Source of the DNA: a virus
Direction: 5' to 3' (one strand)
DNA: 64,000 bases
Virus record (IMG/VR): IMGVR_UViG_3300046779_001269
Coordinates: 1 to 64,000 of that record
Shown: positions 41,506-47,851 of the stretch, piece after piece
How positions within the stretch are numbered: the stretch's first letter is position 1
Layout of the letters: every line of letters begins with the position of its first letter
Notes under the pieces: generated by a model
Databases searched by the model: none
Told to the model about the DNA's origin: nothing
What the model saw: the letters and a program-made list of their open reading frames with translations, nothing else
Translations under genes and position numbers: made by a program

Positions 41506-41745
41506 TTACTCTCCGTAAATTAGTACAACGTGTTCAATTCTAAGGACATAATGTTCACCAGATTTGATTGCGCCATTCCAATTTAGTAAAACAATATCAC
41601 CAACAGAAACTTCGTCAACATCAGGACCAATTGCAATAACTTTTGCACGGTCTGCTTCTTCTGTGCTTCTGAGTACAATTCCTGAAGCAGTTGTTGTTTC
41701 TGCTGGAATACGTTCTACAATAATCTTGTCATGTAATGGGCGCAT
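41506..41745 (-). CDS. groES: co-chaperonin GroES-like
   Basis: RPLHDKIIV, TTASGIVL, VIAIGP, V.VGD; start at MRPLHD. Confidence 0.88.
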   Translation of the reverse strand: MRPLHDKIIVERIPAETTTASGIVLRSTEEADRAKVIAIGPDVDEVSVGDIVLLNWNGAIKSGEHYVLRIEHVVLIYGE

Positions 41746-41843: not shown

Positions 41844-41908
41844 TGGAGCGGGAAACAAGATTCTCACTTGTATATTGGGTGGACCCCAACATTGTTAAAA
41901 ACTCCCGC
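41844..41908 (-). ncRNA. D-armless tRNA-Gly-like RNA
   Basis: GCGGGAG/TTCCCGC-TCCA acceptor, TCC-containing hairpin, T-like arm, no D stem. Confidence 0.55.
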
Positions 41909-42014
41909 ATATACTCTATATAGAAACACACTAACCGTTATACAAAGCCTTCTGTATAACACGGAGGAATAAATTCCTGCTTATCCGTTAAACTGTCATT
42001 AATGTGTTTTTATA

Positions 42015-42088
42015 TGGAGCGGGATAAGAGAATCGAACTCTTAACCGAAGATTGGAAATCTGCTGTTTTACCATTAAACTAATCCCGC
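42015..42088 (-). tRNA. tRNA-Gly(TCC)
   Basis: Cloverleaf with CCA. Confidence 0.9.
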
Positions 42089-42092
42089 ATAT

Positions 42093-42962
42093 TGGCGCAC
42101 TGAGATTACATGCTGCCCATTGACACCTCATTCATTATAGTAAGCCTTGCGAGCCTACCTTCGCATGATATCCACCACAACTGTATTGCTACATATTGCA
42201 GTCTGTCAACAACATCGCCGTTTTGAAAGTCAGGCACTAGACTTGTCGCCATAAACTACTCTACGCTTTCTACCCCGTTGACCTTGCGAGCCATTCACAG
42301 TCGCTAAACCGTTACGAAACTTCTTGCATAAACTATCGTCACCTTGCGAGCTTCAATAGACTTGATTGTGTTACCACTCAAGTATTAGATGTTTTTCATC
42401 TATGACCGTGTCAGTCTTTGCGTTTTATTGTTAGAAGGAGTCGAACCTTCAGTCTATTTCTTGAAATGAAATTGGCCTACCATTAGCCTATAACTGAACC
42501 TACTGCGATGTGCTGACACAGTTGCTGCATACTCTTTTGGAATACACAATACAACACACCACGTACCTTTTGTCTTGCGAACTACTCAGTCGTCTTTCAC
42601 GATTAGTGTGACCCCGCCGATTTCTCGACAGCCCCAGTAACCATTCAAACTGCATACGAGCCCTTGACTGCAACATCTCGGACAAATACGCTACCCTTTC
42701 TCATACTGACTGGCAAGTTAGTGTTGTTGTGAGACTCAGCACCACCTGTTAGTTCTCTGTCTGCCTGTCTTACCCTCACGGGAACATAAACAGACATTCT
42801 TTCCACAACTCTTGCTTCCTCATTACATCCACCCGTCTTATAAGTGAACGACACCTCACGGTGTTGAGCAGGCTTGTTTAGATAGACTATTTCTAGCGGA
42901 GTTATGTAGGCATACCTCCTTTGGGTGACTCACGCCACTTATCTTAATGATGCTAAACCACC
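42093..42962 (-). ncRNA. large structured ncRNA, GOLLD-like (~870 nt)
   Basis: No credible ORF, own promoter, three CTCGCAAGG GNRA-type hairpin loops, embedded tRNA-like arm set, located inside a tRNA array. Confidence 0.6.
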
Positions 42963-42984
42963 ATTTGTTTTTCAACATGTATGT

Positions 42985-43038
42985 ATTGTATCAGAACCGA
43001 AGTGTCTTGTCAACACTTATTGTGGTATATTTACAACA
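42985..43038 (-). promoter_or_regulatory. sigma70 promoter plus near-palindrome, driving the large ncRNA
   Basis: TTGACA (43008-43013), 17 bp, TACAAT (42985-42990); TGTGG-N8-CAACA at 43021-43038. Confidence 0.75.
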
Positions 43039-43078
43039 CACACATAAAATTTTTATTTGTAGAGTTAATACAAAAATC

Positions 43079-43152
43079 TGGTGCCCCTAGAGAGAATCGA
43101 ACTCCCGTCCTCGGATTACAAAACCGATGTTCTACCATTTAACTACAGGGGC
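43079..43152 (-). tRNA. tRNA-Thr(TGT)
   Basis: Cloverleaf with CCA. Confidence 0.9.
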
Positions 43153-43157
43153 AAATT

Positions 43158-43231
43158 TGGAGCGGGTAGCGAGAATCGAACTCGCAAATAAACCTTGGCA
43201 AGGTTTCAGGTTACCTTTACATCATACCCGC
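43158..43231 (-). tRNA. tRNA-Gly(GCC)
   Basis: Cloverleaf with CCA. Confidence 0.88.
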
Positions 43232-43240
43232 AATTTGTTT

Positions 43241-43269
43241 ATTATATATGCTTTACAATCACTTGTCAA
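43241..43269 (-). promoter_or_regulatory. sigma70 promoter
   Basis: TTGACA, 17 bp, TATAAT. Confidence 0.75.
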
Positions 43270-43290
43270 GCACTCCTAGAAAATATTTTT

Positions 43291-43376
43291 TGGTGCGGGT
43301 AGCCGGACTCGAACCAGCACGCCATAAGGCGGGAGATTTTAAGTCTCCTGTGTACTACCAATTTCACCATACCCGC
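43291..43376 (-). tRNA. tRNA-Leu(TAA)
   Basis: Cloverleaf with long variable arm and CCA. Confidence 0.9.
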
Positions 43377-43379
43377 ACA

Positions 43380-43952
43380 TTACATTGTTGGTCCGTTTCC
43401 GTTTTTGAAACCGACTTCACCACCTTCATCTTTGATTCGTTTGATAACATCTTCAAAAAGAATAGGACGAAAATCTGTTTGTTCAACGCAAACACAATGA
43501 TATCTCACATCAACCTTAGAATTTTTAACACCTGTCATCACACGACCAGTATGAAGGTGACCGTGAATGTTAGTACCAAAACGACCAAGACTGGCTTCGT
43601 GAATTGGAATATGTGAAAGAATCATTCCGTTCATTACATGATATGCACGAAGTTCACGGAAGTGTTCTCTATATTCTTCATCACGGAAGATATCATGGTT
43701 ACCACGAATAAGAACCTTATCGCCGTTAAGTCTATGCATAATGCTAAGTGCTTTACGGTTGATAACTACATCACCAAGGTGATATACTTTATCATTTGGT
43801 CTTACTGTTTCGTTCCAACGCTTTACCATTTCCTCATCCATTTCAGCAGGATCAGTCCATGGTCTAATCTTTTGACCTGTGGTCGAATCGGTGAACCTAC
43901 ACACACCAGCATGGCCAAAGTGTGTATCACTTACAAGAAATACTGCTGGCAT
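43380..43952 (-). CDS. calcineurin-like metallophosphoesterase
   Basis: SDTHFGH, HLGD, GNHD, SH, HGHLH. Confidence 0.9.
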   Translation of the reverse strand: MPAVFLVSDTHFGHAGVCRFTDSTTGQKIRPWTDPAEMDEEMVKRWNETVRPNDKVYHLGDVVINRKALSIMHRLNGDKVLIRGNHDIFRDEEYREHFRELRAYHVMNGMILSHIPIHEASLGRFGTNIHGHLHTGRVMTGVKNSKVDVRYHCVCVEQTDFRPILFEDVIKRIKDEGGEVGFKNGNGPTM

Positions 43953-43968
43953 AATGTCTCCTAAAAAA

Positions 43969-44043
43969 TGGTCCGGCGTGCAGGAATCGAACCCACATTA
44001 AAAGGGTAGAAGCCTTCTGTATTATCCATTATACTAACGCCAG
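43969..44043 (-). tRNA. tRNA-Arg(TCT)
   Basis: Cloverleaf with CCA. Confidence 0.9.
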
Positions 44044-44049
44044 AATGTT

Positions 44050-44126
44050 TGGTGCCCTAGGAGGGACTCGAACCCTCAGAACCTGGTTTCTAAGACCAGT
44101 ACGTATACCAATTCCGTCACCAGGGC
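44050..44126 (-). tRNA. tRNA-Leu(TAG), short variable loop
   Basis: Cloverleaf with CCA, no long variable arm. Confidence 0.85.
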
Positions 44127-44298
44127 AAAAAATAAATAATCTTATGTCAGAATTCAAATCAGCAGAACCTAATCTTTGGCGATATGCCGCAACTCAACCG
44201 TATAAAGATACTAAATCTTTTTCGTGTGAGAAGGATTTTACACTTTCCTTTCCAAAAAGGCAAGTGGTTCCGTTTGAACGAACTGAAATAAAACAACT

Positions 44299-44372
44299 TG
44301 GTGCTCCAAGAAAGAATCGAACTTTCATTTAATCCTTACCATGGATTTGTTCTGCCATTAAACTATAGGAGC
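44299..44372 (-). tRNA. tRNA-Thr(GGT)
   Basis: Cloverleaf with CCA. Confidence 0.88.
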
Positions 44373-44376
44373 AAAG

Positions 44377-44451
44377 TGGTGGGTCATCAGAGAATCAAAC
44401 TCTGTTCTTCCGGTTAAGAGCCGGTTGCTTCATCACTTAAGCTTATAACCC
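44377..44451 (-). tRNA. tRNA-Lys(CTT)
   Basis: Cloverleaf with CCA; T-loop TTTGATT. Confidence 0.82.
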
Positions 44452-44566
44452 ATATAGAAACACACTGTACCTCTGCCGTGATTACGCCGATATCTAACGC
44501 ATCTGCGGACAACATATGATTACTTTTCTAGAATTTTCATCTTTTCAGATATAATGTGTTTTTATA

Positions 44567-44643
44567 TGGTACCCAAGGTGGGATTCGAGCCCACAAAAAC
44601 ATGTGTTTGAGACATGCACGTTTACCTATTTCGTCACTTGGGC
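44567..44643 (-). tRNA. tRNA-Leu(CAA), short variable loop
   Basis: Cloverleaf with CCA, no long variable arm. Confidence 0.8.
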
Positions 44644-44646
44644 ATT

Positions 44647-44722
44647 TGGTGCAACCTACAGGAATCGAACCTGTTTCAACGGCTCTTCAGACCGCCGCTA
44701 TGACCACATCAGCTAAAGTTGC
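44647..44722 (-). tRNA. tRNA-Phe(GAA)
   Basis: Cloverleaf with CCA. Confidence 0.88.
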
Positions 44723-44930
44723 ATATTGAATTTGTAAGTTGTGCCACCATCGTTATTGACACCATTCACCCAAGTATATAAAGCCGGCTGGGACTCGGTA
44801 CGTTATTACAGTTACTCATCCAACGTGTCTATATTTTGTACAGAGGTTTTGCGCCTCCCGTTGTTTACCTCCTCTTTGGCTGGCCAGCTACTTGAATCGG
44901 TGACTTTCACTTACTAACACTTACAAAAAT

Positions 44931-45005
44931 TGGTGCATCGTGAGAGGATTGAACTCCCGACCTTCGCCTTGTAAGGGCGCAGCTCTACCGCTGAGCTAAC
45001 GATGC
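44931..45005 (-). tRNA. tRNA-Val(TAC)
   Basis: Cloverleaf with CCA. Confidence 0.9.
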
Positions 45006-45015
45006 AAATTTACTT

Positions 45016-45090
45016 TGGGGAGACATACGAGAATCGAACTCGTGATAACGGAATCACAACCCGTGGTTTTACCACTAAACTAATGTCTCC
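45016..45090 (-). tRNA. tRNA-His(GTG)
   Basis: Cloverleaf, G-1:C73 pair, CCA. Confidence 0.9.
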
Positions 45091-45123
45091 CCAAAGCAAA
45101 CTTAATTACTTTGGGGGTCTGTA

Positions 45124-45612
45124 TTAACCTGCAATAGCTTCTTGCTCTGCCAGAATTCTTTTCAATCTGTCAGCACAGAAACTTGCAGCAGGCGCATCTG
45201 GTTTAACCATAGGTGTCATGTTACATGTACCTTTGATATAACCAATCGCTTGTTGCACAACACAAGAACTGCCGTGCATATCATCTTTGTTCAAGTCTAG
45301 GTGAACTTCAACATGATAATCTTCTAACACTTCAGCCAATGATTGGAACAATTCTGATACCTTATATACTTCTGTCATCAGACGCATAGCAGGTTTACTT
45401 TTCTTGTGGTCATAATCTAATTCACGGTCAACATAACCGAAAATTTTACAACCATGACGGCCATCAATATGAACTACGACAGCCAATGCATAATCAGCAT
45501 ACCAAACGCCGTTAACACGGATACGTTCAGAGTCAGCACCCAAATAAACTTTCGTATCTGGTCCTTGATTTGCAAGGAATTGTTTGACTTCTTGTATGTC
45601 GAAATTTCTCAT
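45124..45612 (-). CDS. YkuK/DUF458 family RNase H-like protein
   Basis: VYLGADS, RLMTEV..., EVHLDLN, KPDAPAASFCAD. Confidence 0.8.
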   Translation of the reverse strand: MRNFDIQEVKQFLANQGPDTKVYLGADSERIRVNGVWYADYALAVVVHIDGRHGCKIFGYVDRELDYDHKKSKPAMRLMTEVYKVSELFQSLAEVLEDYHVEVHLDLNKDDMHGSSCVVQQAIGYIKGTCNMTPMVKPDAPAASFCADRLKRILAEQEAIAG

Positions 45613-45634
45613 ATCAATCACCTTTCTATAAAAT

Positions 45635-45708
45635 TGGCTCCCCGCCAGGGAATCGAACCCCGTCCAAAAGTTTTGGAGACTCTTGTGCTACCGGAACACT
45701 TGCGGGAA
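45635..45708 (-). tRNA. tRNA-Trp(CCA)
   Basis: Cloverleaf with CCA. Confidence 0.88.
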
Positions 45709-45715
45709 ATAAACT

Positions 45716-45789
45716 TGGTACCTTGTACAAGAATCGAACTTGTGTCTACCGGTTATCAGCCGGGTGCTCTGCCATTGAGCTAACGAGGT
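45716..45789 (-). tRNA. tRNA-Ile(GAT)
   Basis: Cloverleaf with CCA. Confidence 0.88.
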
Positions 45790-46034
45790 AAAATGCTCTG
45801 ACATCCTGCGGCGGTAATTATACTTCTCAAGTCTTTCATCGTCATTTGACACATACAGGCATGACCCATACACATCATCGGATTACTTAACCATCACAGA
45901 AGCCTCCACCCGCTTCCCGACCAGGACCGTTATCGCATTGCTAGCGGCCTTTCGGTTTAAAGACTACCACCCGTGTATATCATTACACTTCTCATCCTGC
46001 GGGTCACAGTAGTGGTTGACGAGACCACACGTTC

Positions 46035-46109
46035 TGGAGGGCAATGAGAGAATCAAACTCCCGTTTCAAGGTTCGTAGCCTCGTGTATTATTCACTATAC
46101 GAATCGCCC
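46035..46109 (-). tRNA. tRNA-Arg(ACG)
   Basis: Cloverleaf with CCA. Confidence 0.82.
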
Positions 46110-46115
46110 ATAAAT

Positions 46116-46191
46116 TGGTGCAGCCAAAGGACTCGAACCTTTGCGGGAAACTAGTATACAGCGGACATGCCGCCTACCCCTCCATTACTGC
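46116..46191 (-). ncRNA. tRNA-like RNA: acceptor, T arm and CCA, but no canonical D/anticodon arms
   Basis: GCAGT.../...GGCTGC-ACCA; CAAAGG-TTCGAGT-CCTTTG. Confidence 0.6.
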
Positions 46192-46197
46192 ATATCT

Positions 46198-46272
46198 TGG
46201 TGGTTCAGGTGAGAATCGAACTCACACAAGGCACCGTATGAAGATGCTGCACTGCCACTATGCTACTGAACC
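46198..46272 (-). tRNA. tRNA-Met(CAT), elongator-like
   Basis: Cloverleaf with CCA. Confidence 0.82.
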
Positions 46273-46278
46273 GAAATT

Positions 46279-46353
46279 TGGTGGAGGCCGAGGAAATCGA
46301 ATCCTTCTAGACATTCTCCTTGCAAGGGAGAACCGCAGCCCACTGCTGCCCCC
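46279..46353 (-). tRNA. tRNA-Ala(TGC), atypical D arm
   Basis: G3:U70, TGC anticodon, D hairpin with 4-nt loop. Confidence 0.75.
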
Positions 46354-46402
46354 AAATAACTTACTACTTATCTCATTGTACGCCGCAAGTTAAGGCGAGA
46401 TA

Positions 46403-46478
46403 TGGTCTCCGTAGAGGGATTTGAACCCCCACTGCTTGGTCCCAAACCAAGAGCGCTACCAGGTTACGCTATACGGAG
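46403..46478 (-). tRNA. tRNA-Pro(TGG)
   Basis: Cloverleaf with CCA. Confidence 0.9.
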
Positions 46479-46483
46479 AAAAT

Positions 46484-46559
46484 TGGCTCCCTAGGTATGG
46501 ATCGAACATACGACATCCTGATTAACAGTCAGGCGCAACTACCGCTGTGCTACTAGGGA
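46484..46559 (-). tRNA. tRNA-Asn(GTT)
   Basis: Cloverleaf with CCA. Confidence 0.9.
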
Positions 46560-46644
46560 ATAAAATCTTGAAAGTTCCGATATCACCCATCGTCACTAAC
46601 AACCGTTGAGTAACCATGCATCAAAACAAGATTACTATTTGCCT

Positions 46645-46719
46645 TGGCGCCCCGTAGGGGAATCGAACCCCTGTCTTCCGATGGACAGTCGGATATAATG
46701 GCCGTTATATTAACGGGGC
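46645..46719 (-). tRNA. tRNA-Asp(GTC)
   Basis: Cloverleaf with CCA. Confidence 0.88.
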
Positions 46720-46724
46720 ATAAT

Positions 46725-46809
46725 TGGTGGAGACGGTGTGAGTCGAACACACAGTGCCAGAGGCGGCGGATTTACAGTCCACTGGGGTTACCAATTTTCC
46801 TACATCTCC
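46725..46809 (-). tRNA. tRNA-Tyr(GTA)
   Basis: Cloverleaf with long variable arm and CCA. Confidence 0.9.
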
Positions 46810-46818
46810 ATAATTGTT

Positions 46819-46893
46819 TGGTAGGTCCACAGAGAATCGAACTCTGATTTACTGGTTAAAAGCCAGTTACTTTAGCCGTTAAGTTATGAACCC
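46819..46893 (-). tRNA. tRNA-Lys(TTT)
   Basis: Cloverleaf with CCA. Confidence 0.88.
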
Positions 46894-47018
46894 ATTTACC
46901 ATTTGTTTTACTGACGCACTATTTGCTATGTTTCACCGGAGTAGCGGCCGCATTACCGTTTCTTAACATAGTTACATAAGGCTTGTACATGCTTCTGAGC
47001 TTACATCAGCAAAACAAA

Positions 47019-47093
47019 TGGTACACGATACGAGAATCGAACTCGTCTTTCCGCCTTGAAAGGGCAGCGTCCTAACCGATAGACGAATCGTGC
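47019..47093 (-). tRNA. tRNA-Glu(TTC)
   Basis: Cloverleaf with CCA. Confidence 0.9.
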
Positions 47094-47111
47094 ATTTATT
47101 AACTCTACAAA

Positions 47112-47186
47112 TTTTTAAAGAACAAGTGTGTATTGTATCACAACCACATCTTTTGTCAACCATTGTGTTGCAAAATTACAACACAA
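47112..47186 (-). promoter_or_regulatory. sigma70 promoter, palindrome and boxA-like element
   Basis: TTGACA (47154-47159), 16 bp, TGnTACAAT; TTGTGTTG-N8-CAACACAA (47163-47186); TGTTCTTTAAAAA downstream. Confidence 0.75.
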
Positions 47187-47188
47187 CT

Positions 47189-47262
47189 TGGAGTAGGTGA
47201 CAGGAATCGAACCTGTTTCCATGGGTTTGCAATCCAGTGCCTGTCCAACTGGCTCCACCTAC
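47189..47262 (-). tRNA. tRNA-Cys(GCA)
   Basis: Cloverleaf, U73, CCA. Confidence 0.88.
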
Positions 47263-47268
47263 ATTGTT

Positions 47269-47360
47269 TGGTACCAGCGGTGAGAATCGAACTCACTCAA
47301 GAACGCTAATCTGGCGCTAAAAGGTGTATAAGACCTCTCTGACTACCAAGTCTCGCTGGC
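47269..47360 (-). tRNA. atypical tRNA with TAT anticodon (nominally Ile), long variable arm, mini D loop
   Basis: GCCAGCG/CGCTGGT acceptor; GACT-TGGT-AGTC; GAGGT-CTTATAC-ACCTT; ~24-nt variable region. Confidence 0.65.
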
Positions 47361-47363
47361 ATT

Positions 47364-47451
47364 TGGCGGAGAGTATCGGATTCGAACCGATGCGCCGATT
47401 TCTCAACGACAGTTTAGCAAACTGCTGGTTTAACCACTCACCCAACTCTCC
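47364..47451 (-). tRNA. tRNA-Ser(GCT)
   Basis: Cloverleaf with long variable arm and CCA. Confidence 0.9.
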
Positions 47452-47458
47452 ATAAATT

Positions 47459-47550
47459 TGGCGGAAAGCAGAGGAGTCGAACCCCATCCCATTTCTGAGA
47501 ACCTAGTTTTCAAGGCTAGTCGCCGGACCATCCCAGCTGCATTACTTTCC
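47459..47550 (-). tRNA. tRNA-Ser(TGA), extra nucleotides before the D stem
   Basis: Cloverleaf with long variable arm, G73, CCA. Confidence 0.8.
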
Positions 47551-47684
47551 ATTAATTACCATATAGAAGCACGCTACGGAATCGAACCGCCGTGCTAGCC
47601 TGCTCCCCAAAGCGATGATACATCTTTAACCCAGAACCTCAGGAGCTACCTGATTTGTTAAAGATATACTAGCGCACTTCTATA

Positions 47685-47758
47685 TGGCACCCCCACTTGG
47701 AATCAAACCAAGACTAACAAGTTCAAAGCCTGTTGTGCTATCACTACACCATGGAGGA
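47685..47758 (-). tRNA. tRNA-Gln(TTG)
   Basis: Cloverleaf with CCA. Confidence 0.82.
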
Positions 47759-47778
47759 ACAATTATTAACTCTACAAA

Positions 47779-47851
47779 TTTTTAAAGAACAAGATGTGTA
47801 TTGTAACAGAATCAAAGAATCTGGCAACTACACTGTTGTTTTGAAACAACA
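47779..47851 (-). promoter_or_regulatory. sigma70 promoter, palindrome and boxA-like element
   Basis: TTGCCA (47822-47827), 16 bp, TGnTACAAT (47800-47805); TGTTG-N8-CAACA (47834-47851); TGTTCTTTAAAAA. Confidence 0.7.

Follow-up and report, generated by a model that had tools for sequence, protein, structure and literature searches.

Stem-closed RNA modules anchored on tRNA CCA ends, with exchangeable interiors, in the tRNA arrays of uncultured phages

The DNA analysed here (the window) comprises positions 1 to 64,000 of the IMG/VR virus record IMGVR_UViG_3300046779_001269, a complete 176-kb genome of an uncultured freshwater phage with T4-type replication genes. Its transfer RNA (tRNA) array contains four spacers, designated el1 to el4, which on the minus-strand reading are closed by helices of 18-22 base pairs (bp) starting at the discriminator and CCA of the upstream tRNA. 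The elements el1 to el3 share their arms and represent a family referred to as type A; el4 represents a second RNA, type B. Selection acts on the closing helix as an RNA structure of the tRNA strand, and the interiors of type A elements (cargos) are highly diverse and have been swapped between phages. We regard it as fairly likely that these modules are co-transcribed, stem-clamped small RNAs excised together with the tRNAs, with cargos replaced between phages by homology of the arms. Excision, the nuclease involved and a function of the cargos are what we infer from these patterns; release would probably be due to the tRNA-processing machinery.

Phage tRNA arrays are usually read as a supply of tRNAs for codon usage or anti-defence, and the DNA between the tRNA genes is ignored. 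In the arrays described here, this DNA encodes a very large family, not yet catalogued, of structured RNAs that share a handle of about 20 bp built on the CCA end of the tRNA. Replacement of the interior between near-identical phages is the signature usual at loci of host-phage conflict.

Closing helix and its anchoring on the tRNA

ARAGORN identified 28 tRNAs in the window, located between 41.7 and 49.8 kb and all encoded on the minus strand, so that the motifs listed in a first-pass annotation of this DNA are minus-strand reads. That annotation had described a family with shared arms around unrelated structured interiors, and the folding energies agree with it: as calculated with RNAfold against dinucleotide shuffles, the helices lie far below the shuffled sequences (Table 1), and the arms of el1 to el3 are common to all three. 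The arm motif of these elements occurs as six arms only and nowhere else in the 176-kb genome; the 5' 9-mer of the arm is present seven times in the window versus 2.15 expected.

In el1, positions 42020-41998 pair with 41935-41913, with an A.C mismatch at 42010/41923, and enclose two hairpins. Element el2 spans exactly the distance from the CCA of tRNA-Leu(CAA) (44567-44569) to the first two G residues of the next tRNA (44451-44450), which pair with the CC of the upstream CCA. The GG at 44450 had been taken for the 5' end of a tRNA; Rfam recognizes a tRNA-Lys(CUU)-like gene at this very place. The variant el3 has G-C at position 7 and compensated changes in the inner arm, and the T-arm-like hairpin noticed in its interior is indeed present. 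The suggestion that the stem pairs the CCA of the tRNA with a downstream UGG holds for el2, el3 and el4, but the 3' arm of el1 ends with UAG, which leaves C75 unpaired against A; base pairs form again in the 3' strand of the acceptor stem. Element el4 (approximately 123 nucleotides, nt) is built as a three-way junction closed by a CCA-anchored helix of 21 bp; it has the same design, as had been claimed, but is a conserved RNA of its own and not a variant of type A.

The region 46369-46402 (minus strand), previously considered a mini version of these elements, is a weak hairpin of 6-7 bp (z -0.55; 50 of 200 shuffles fold as well) and was rejected. No significant CCA-anchored helix was detected in the other long spacers, i.e. 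46560-46644, 44127-44298, 45790-46034, and 44723-44930.

Table 1. Elements, adjoining tRNA genes and predicted promoters in the tRNA array of the window.
Feature	Position	Strand	Evidence and remarks
el1, type A cassette after tRNA-Gly(UCC)	41913-42020	-	RNAfold z -5.7
el2, type A cassette	44450-44569	-	RNAfold z -2.7; CCA...UGG helix
el3, type A variant after tRNA-Gln(UUG)	47557-47689	-	RNAfold z -5.6; match to arm pattern
T-loop-like hairpin in el3, adjoining the 3' arm	47576-47590	-	Read from sequence; not a tRNA by Rfam
el4, type B RNA after tRNA-Glu(UUC)	46897-47023	-	RNAfold z -5.1
tRNA-Gly(UCC)	42015-42088	-	ARAGORN and Rfam; CCA opens el1 helix
tRNA-Lys(CUU)-like gene	44380-44451	-	Rfam tRNA, 50 bits; missed by ARAGORN
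tRNA-Leu(CAA)	44567-44643	-	ARAGORN and Rfam; CCA opens el2 helix
tRNA-Glu(UUC), upstream of el4	47019-47093	-	ARAGORN and Rfam
tRNA-Gln(UUG), upstream of el3	47685-47758	-	ARAGORN and Rfam
Sigma-70-like promoter feeding tRNA-Glu and el4	47132-47159	-	Promoter scan
Similar promoter before tRNA-Gln and el3	47800-47827	-	Promoter scan
Similar promoter before GOLLD, tRNA-Gly and el1	42985-43013	-	Promoter scan

For type A, 310 elements, of which 231 are distinct, were analysed in the orientation of the surrounding tRNAs. Related loci, cited below by our L numbers, are fragments and were mostly fetched by exact arm patterns; a second set of loci was fetched via the phosphatase gene of the array, independently of arm sequence. 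All counts refer to sequences and not to independent evolutionary events. The consensus of type A is (A)CCAUAUAAAAACACAUUN ... N'AGUGUGUUUCUAUAUGG(U). Its helix extends from the discriminator to approximately position 17 and mostly has 18-21 bp, or 18-20 bp if counted from C74. Every one of the 174 exact-arm copies lies within a tRNA array and in tRNA orientation. The first CA is shared with the CCA of an ARAGORN tRNA in 120 of these copies, and a tRNA 5' end follows within 0-1 nt in 49. Pairing of the 3' tail with the discriminator of the upstream tRNA was found in 79% of cases versus 74% after shuffling, a slight but significant excess that 3 of 2000 shuffles reached.

Covariation of the arms, one of the points on which the proposed family had been staked, is evident. 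Position 6 is AU in 192 and UA in 32 copies, position 14 is AU in 204 and UA in 21, position 13 varies between CG, UG, and UA, and all four Watson-Crick types occur at position 17. Positions 6, 10, 11, 13, 14, and 17 pair above all 1000 partner shuffles. Divergent copies fetched by their cargo have arms with several compensated changes at once. Most loci were fetched with exact arms, which accounts for part of the apparent near-invariance of arm sequence.

The wobble pairs point to the strand on which the helix is selected. On the tRNA-sense strand, G.U or U.G occupies 259 cells of the alignment versus 12 for A.C or C.A (position 7 excluded), and this asymmetry holds without any stem filter. 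G.U on the sense strand corresponds to A.C on the opposite one; hence, the helix is selected in the RNA of the transcribed strand. At position 7, 155 of 231 copies have A.C, 40 have G-C, and 31 have A-U, and G.U does not occur there in the exact-arm set; the A.C represents a conserved defect about halfway along the helix. Position 15, located 8 bp apart, is U.G in 152 of 231 copies.

Two further interpretations of arm sequences were discarded. A presumed third arm family, 'CCAUAUGGGGGU', is really the CCA of tRNA-Lys(CUU) followed by the 5' strand of tRNA-Lys(UUU), which forms G.U pairs with the 3' arm of the element that follows. The order tRNA-Lys(CUU), tRNA-Lys(UUU), type A was seen in L091, L101, L104, L112, L113, and other loci. 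There, the 3' arm of the element has a second possible partner, CCA-UAU together with the 5' acceptor strand of tRNA-Lys(UUU); the alternative helix, formed with G.U wobbles, would enclose the entire tRNA-Lys(UUU) and may be due to chance or represent a switch. Also, the 5' arm was considered as a T4-type late promoter. Words similar to TATAAATA are not enriched upstream of open reading frames (ORFs), and the A run is missing from the 5' arm in 40 of 231 copies, which counts against this interpretation.

Diversity and replacement of the cargo

The first-pass annotation had envisaged variable cargo in a common scaffold, and this is borne out both by the number of cargos and by their precise exchange. 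The interiors of the 310 type A elements formed at least 142 clusters, including 84 singletons, with a Chao1 estimate of approximately 295. Cargos within one genome are unrelated, and orthologous cargos are conserved between contigs. Thus, an ortholog of el1 with the same cargo is present in L134, and the orthologs of el2 in L118 and L128 have retained a mostly unpaired stretch of about 40 nt and a covarying hairpin. In one of the clusters (cluster 0), cargo length and unpaired motifs are kept and 13 of 32 pairs are compensatory.

The same cargo occurs behind different tRNAs from contig to contig. Conversely, one and the same pair of tRNAs, such as Lys(UUU) to His, may be separated by a spacer of 6-8 nt or by type A elements with at least 10 different cargos. 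The clearest case is that of L226, L321, and L302, which carry three unrelated cargos between 400-nt flanks of 99.5-100% identity. Their arms are essentially the same (that of L226 is one base off), and sequence identity is lost where the arms meet the cargo. This is a recent and precise cargo replacement bounded by the arms.

The tRNA T-loop is the sole motif recurring across cargo clusters. It was detected in 33 of 231 elements versus 2.2 in shuffled sequences and often adjoins the 3' arm, as in el3. The possibility that T-loop cargos are real or CCA-less tRNA genes was discarded: they are recognized neither by ARAGORN nor by Rfam, and none of the 310 elements is overlapped by an ARAGORN tRNA. 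Folded without their arms, cargos are modestly more stable than shuffles (mean z -0.66), which suggests that some interiors may be filler; 21 of 141 have z < -2 (about 3 expected) and 41 of 141 have z > 0. Complementarity of the interiors to phage sequences, as had been conceived, was not found: the four interiors gave no antisense match of 15 nt or longer in the phage genome outside the shared arms.

Related RNAs, occurrence and comparison with known systems

Type B is a separate conserved RNA of about 123 nt, located after tRNA-Glu and containing conserved unpaired stretches. In an alignment of 35 distinct relatives, 98.6% of the cells are paired and 11 of 37 pairs are compensatory. None of 500 shuffles reached the observed percentage of pairing, the number of compensatory pairs or the covariation score, and pairing fell to 30-50% in slid registers of the alignment. 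Another conserved CCA-anchored RNA of 148-151 nt is present after tRNA-Glu in L099, L149, L170, L022, L030, and L031; the first ten bases of its arm are those of type B, and the remaining stem and cargo differ.

The design extends beyond these two types. In related arrays, a helix of at least 14 bp that starts at the CCA and closes 30-220 nt was present behind 340 of 3901 CCA-ending tRNAs versus 12 and 19 in two controls, far more often than by chance. The scan revealed further arm families with sequences unrelated to one another. Counted from C74, the helices of these families cluster at 19-22 bp, with a peak at 20. The convergence of unrelated arms on approximately 20 bp suggests a reader of two-turn helices such as host RNase III.

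The two-arm pattern of el1 and el2 (gap of 65-95 nt) was found at no fewer than 118 IMG/VR loci, and the 16-nt arm of el4 at no fewer than 119. In 185,579 prokaryote genomes, the two-arm pattern was detected only in two short contigs of metagenome-assembled genomes, one of which was binned as Polynucleobacter. Among the loci fetched via the phosphatase gene, 29 of 33 arrays with at least 15 tRNAs hold 1-5 type A elements, and 7 of 33 hold type B. Cultured phages contain neither a relative nor an element by megablast and blastn; BUCT-ZZ01, the nearest cultured phage by its array phosphatase (58% identity), lacks the motif.

Rfam 15 gave no match to el1-el4 at E<=1 and none to the three tandem type A elements of L096 at E<=5. 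In 16 related loci, the best 150 of 175 Rfam matches were only to tRNA, GOLLD, and transfer-messenger RNA (tmRNA), plus one weak antisense-tRNA match (Plastid-ycf2). The family proposed in the first-pass annotation is thus widespread among uncultured viruses and missing from Rfam and from cultured phages. No description of it was found in a literature search, outside the reach of which lay much of the subscription literature. The hundreds of different and recently exchanged interiors framed by the same stem in related phages point to an uncatalogued class of phage small RNAs.

Two-piece tmRNA genes, reportedly treated by Keiler et al. in 2000 and by Sharkady and Williams in 2004, provide a link to a known process. 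The phage has a two-piece (permuted) tmRNA gene outside the window, at genome positions 143420-143813 (minus strand; L328 154-535), with Rfam scores of 141.6 bits (beta_tmRNA, RF01850) and 123.3 bits (tmRNA_permuted, RF04321). Its intervening sequence of 93 nt (143628-143720), located between the CCA of the acceptor piece and the GGG of the coding piece, folds as a type A-like hairpin whose cargo bears a T-loop. A homologous cargo occurs with canonical arms behind a tRNA in L191, and the intervening sequences of tmRNAs in relatives show the same CCA-anchored design. Mature tmRNA no longer contains such an intervening sequence, which is cut out by enzymes of tRNA processing (PMC11915505); RNase P and RNase Z have been proposed for this step (PMC3985003). 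The removal known for such intervening sequences is so far the strongest, albeit indirect, ground for assuming that the modules between tRNAs are excised as well. Both kinds of hairpins extend from an encoded CCA to an RNase P-type 5' end. Among the elements examined, only the hairpin at 143628-143720 lies between tmRNA pieces, whereas the window elements lie between separate tRNAs and not between halves of one molecule, and a large cargo-swapping family has not been described for the intervening sequences. The tmRNA, with the tag ANDEKFALAA, is of the betaproteobacterial type, which hints at a betaproteobacterial host such as Polynucleobacter or Limnohabitans.

The tRNA cluster of phage T4 encodes two stable RNAs that are not tRNAs, species 1 and 2 (rnaC and rnaD). 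To our knowledge, no function has been assigned to either. Like the elements described here, they are small RNAs located directly after a tRNA in a T4-type tRNA cluster, and in rnaC a T-arm adjoins the 3' end. Unlike these elements, they possess no CCA-anchored closing helix of about 20 bp, shared arms or cargo swapping. BLAST of el1 against the phage collection gave no match and hence no similarity to the T4 RNAs.

The RNase III stalks of 16S and 23S ribosomal RNA and T7 R1.1-type sites resemble the elements in having a helix of about two turns formed from the flanks of a stable RNA, a polycistronic transcript of stable RNAs and, sometimes, a central non-Watson-Crick defect. The 18-22 bp found in type A, type B, and the other families correspond to the two turns of such a stalk. 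They differ in that the helix of the elements stands on the CCA end of a tRNA, has 19-21 bp and not more, and is a putative cleavage site.

PeSL motifs are units of promoter and terminator that flank ORFs and serve as recombination points in T4-like phages (PMC2839356, PMC4122927). They likewise are short conserved motifs bounding swapped modules, but the arms of our elements are inverted, form one RNA helix around non-coding cargo and contain neither promoter nor terminator. The 3'ETS-leuZ of Escherichia coli is a sponge RNA generated from the spacer of a tRNA precursor by tRNA-processing nucleases (mentioned in PMC5222698) and, therefore, a precedent for a functional small RNA of such origin. 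It is a single Hfq-dependent sponge with a terminator and is not known to have a CCA-anchored closing helix or to belong to a cassette family.

Proposed processing, alternative explanations and neighbouring features

In the model that we propose, the modules would act at the RNA level and not as DNA repeats, being transcribed together with the tRNAs from upstream promoters. The 5' strand of the helix of about 20 bp starts at the discriminator and CCA of the upstream tRNA, and its 3' strand ends at the next tRNA or a few nucleotides before it, so that the helix sets the ends of the module flush with the tRNA ends. Maturation of the 3' end of the upstream tRNA and the RNase P cut downstream would then release a blunt, stem-clamped, exonuclease-resistant small RNA. 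Host RNase III or a similar enzyme specific for two-turn helices might cut first, as it does at ribosomal RNA stalks. The central A.C defect could tune such a cut, and the stem left after cutting would protect the released RNA. The interior would be a structured small RNA cargo, with a tRNA T-loop in about one in seven cases. Near-identical arms and flanking tRNAs would act as homology, which leads to precise replacement of the cargo and keeps the arms uniform. Genes for RNase III, Ro60 and RtcB were looked for in the phage genome and are absent.

Several observations weigh against this model. With the CCA sequestered and the helix stacked on the acceptor stem, RNase P should be hindered at the upstream tRNA and not helped. 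Conservation of the arms results in part from fetching with exact arms, and looser searches give diverged arms. The stability of the cargo alone is only modestly above that of shuffles. The phage genome encodes no RNase III, and the argument for this enzyme, which may be involved, is the helix length of about 20 bp.

According to the first alternative, the elements are passive processing spacers or insulators, the interior is neutrally exchanged filler and no functional RNA is released. This would be in line with arms that are far more conserved than interiors, with the many slots that do with 6-8 nt, with the weak folding of cargos (two-sevenths or so of which are less stable than their shuffles), and with the fate of tmRNA intervening sequences, which are by definition discarded (PMC11915505). 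Filler would, however, be expected to shrink toward the 6-8 nt spacers that evidently suffice. From contig to contig, orthologous cargos have preserved their length, their unpaired motifs and, by compensatory changes, their pairs; the enrichment of T-loops is about 15-fold, and the number of cargos with z < -2 is far in excess of expectation. We consider this explanation unlikely.

The second alternative, that of mobile or recombination elements at the DNA level (MITE-like, i.e. similar to miniature inverted-repeat transposable elements, or attC-like structured sites for a recombinase) whose arms would be recognized as DNA in the form of terminal inverted repeats and would fold as RNA only by coincidence, appears very improbable. 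It would account for the inverted arms around a variable centre of 60-140 bp, the precise replacement at arm boundaries, the same cargo behind different tRNAs, the tandem copies without intervening tRNAs in L096 and L157, and the gene of a DUF458 RNase H-like nuclease within the array. Yet, there are no target-site duplications or direct repeats as in MITEs and insertion sequences, the flanks being an inverted CCA...UGG, and copies in one genome share no interiors, unlike those of MITEs; all 142 interiors are unrelated. The arms also differ from the GTTRRRY R/L core sites of integron attC, for which an integrase gene was not searched. The G.U wobbles confined to the transcribed strand indicate RNA, pairing reaches the discriminator of the tRNA itself, and the restriction of exact-arm copies to tRNA arrays and tRNA orientation is complete. 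The DUF458 gene is also found in the array of Stenotrophomonas phage DLP6, which has no such stems.

A third and equally improbable explanation, that the constant stem is a handle for a protein (as with Ro60 on Y RNA or Cas6 on CRISPR repeats) and excision is secondary, would fit the conserved A.C and U.G at positions 7 and 15, the inner arm sequence kept even in diverged variants and the T-loop cargos reminiscent of bacterial Y RNAs such as YrlA, but it is contradicted by the absence of a TROVE domain (Ro60) from the 176-kb phage genome, the lack of an Rfam match to Y RNA, independent arm families that share only length and CCA anchoring with no relation in sequence, and Watson-Crick pairs at position 7 in about 30% of type A copies.

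A broader interpretation can be offered tentatively, and we regard it as rather doubtful. The type A stem might be the universal socket of a phage RNA cassette system, in which more than 300 kinds of small structured RNAs, a large library with rapid turnover, are inserted behind tRNAs, expressed, cut out by tRNA-processing enzymes of the host and used in phage-host conflict. Some cargos would be partial tRNA mimics with a T-loop, and the system would be a counterpart, in RNA, of integron cassettes or PeSL modules. The cargos might act as decoys for, or inhibit, defence nucleases that target tRNAs, enzymes that modify or process tRNAs, or other RNA-guided defences. Should the cargos be functional, they would add a new source of small phage RNAs, and the arrangement would amount to a natural plug-and-excise device for expression that needs no enzymes beyond the universal ones of tRNA processing; this device could be borrowed to express defined small RNAs in bacteria. 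The cassettes also offer a concrete handle on the role of the non-tRNA stable RNAs in T4-type clusters.

One protein-coding gene of the array deserves mention. The ORF at 45124-45621 (minus strand), located between tRNAs, encodes an RNase H-like protein of the DUF458/YkuK family (PF04308, E 2e-14), a description of which is available (PMC3985635). In 54 of 91 related loci, this ORF has tRNAs within 150 nt on both sides. Homologs are present in the tRNA arrays of cultured tRNA-rich phages, as exemplified by DLP6, and matches were also obtained in Vibrio nt-1-like phages. This uncharacterized family is a candidate RNA nuclease of tRNA arrays. Its occurrence in arrays without CCA-anchored stems makes a link to the elements weak. 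Nearly every member of the clade has both the gene and the elements, and the loci are fragments, so that their co-occurrence is uninformative.

Strong sigma-70-like promoters are located upstream of each transcription unit; those of Table 1 score 10-11, and those of the repeated units described next 10-12, of 12 matches in the promoter scan, and no promoter-like or terminator-like sites were detected inside any element by the promoter and terminator scan. Units of a promoter and a shared leader repeat at 47094-47188, 47760-47850, and 43000-43078 (minus strand) and divide the array into several transcription units. A GOLLD RNA was identified at 42097-42562 (minus strand; RF02032, 194 bits, gathering score 150); it probably reaches the promoter located upstream, contains an embedded tRNA-Glu-like domain at 42426-42497 and ends just before tRNA-Gly and el1. 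The same arrangement was found in L094 (202 bits). Four structured spacers of tRNA size, 46110-46197, 46273-46368, 47463-47550, and 41844-41908 (minus strand), were not called by ARAGORN. The spacer at 47463-47550 gave a weak tRNA-Sec-like match in Rfam (32 bits), and the other three are tRNA-like by eye only. An ORF encoding a GroES/Cpn10-like protein is located at the edge of the tRNA array both in the window (41506-41745, minus strand) and in phage DLP6 (L327 11755-12003).

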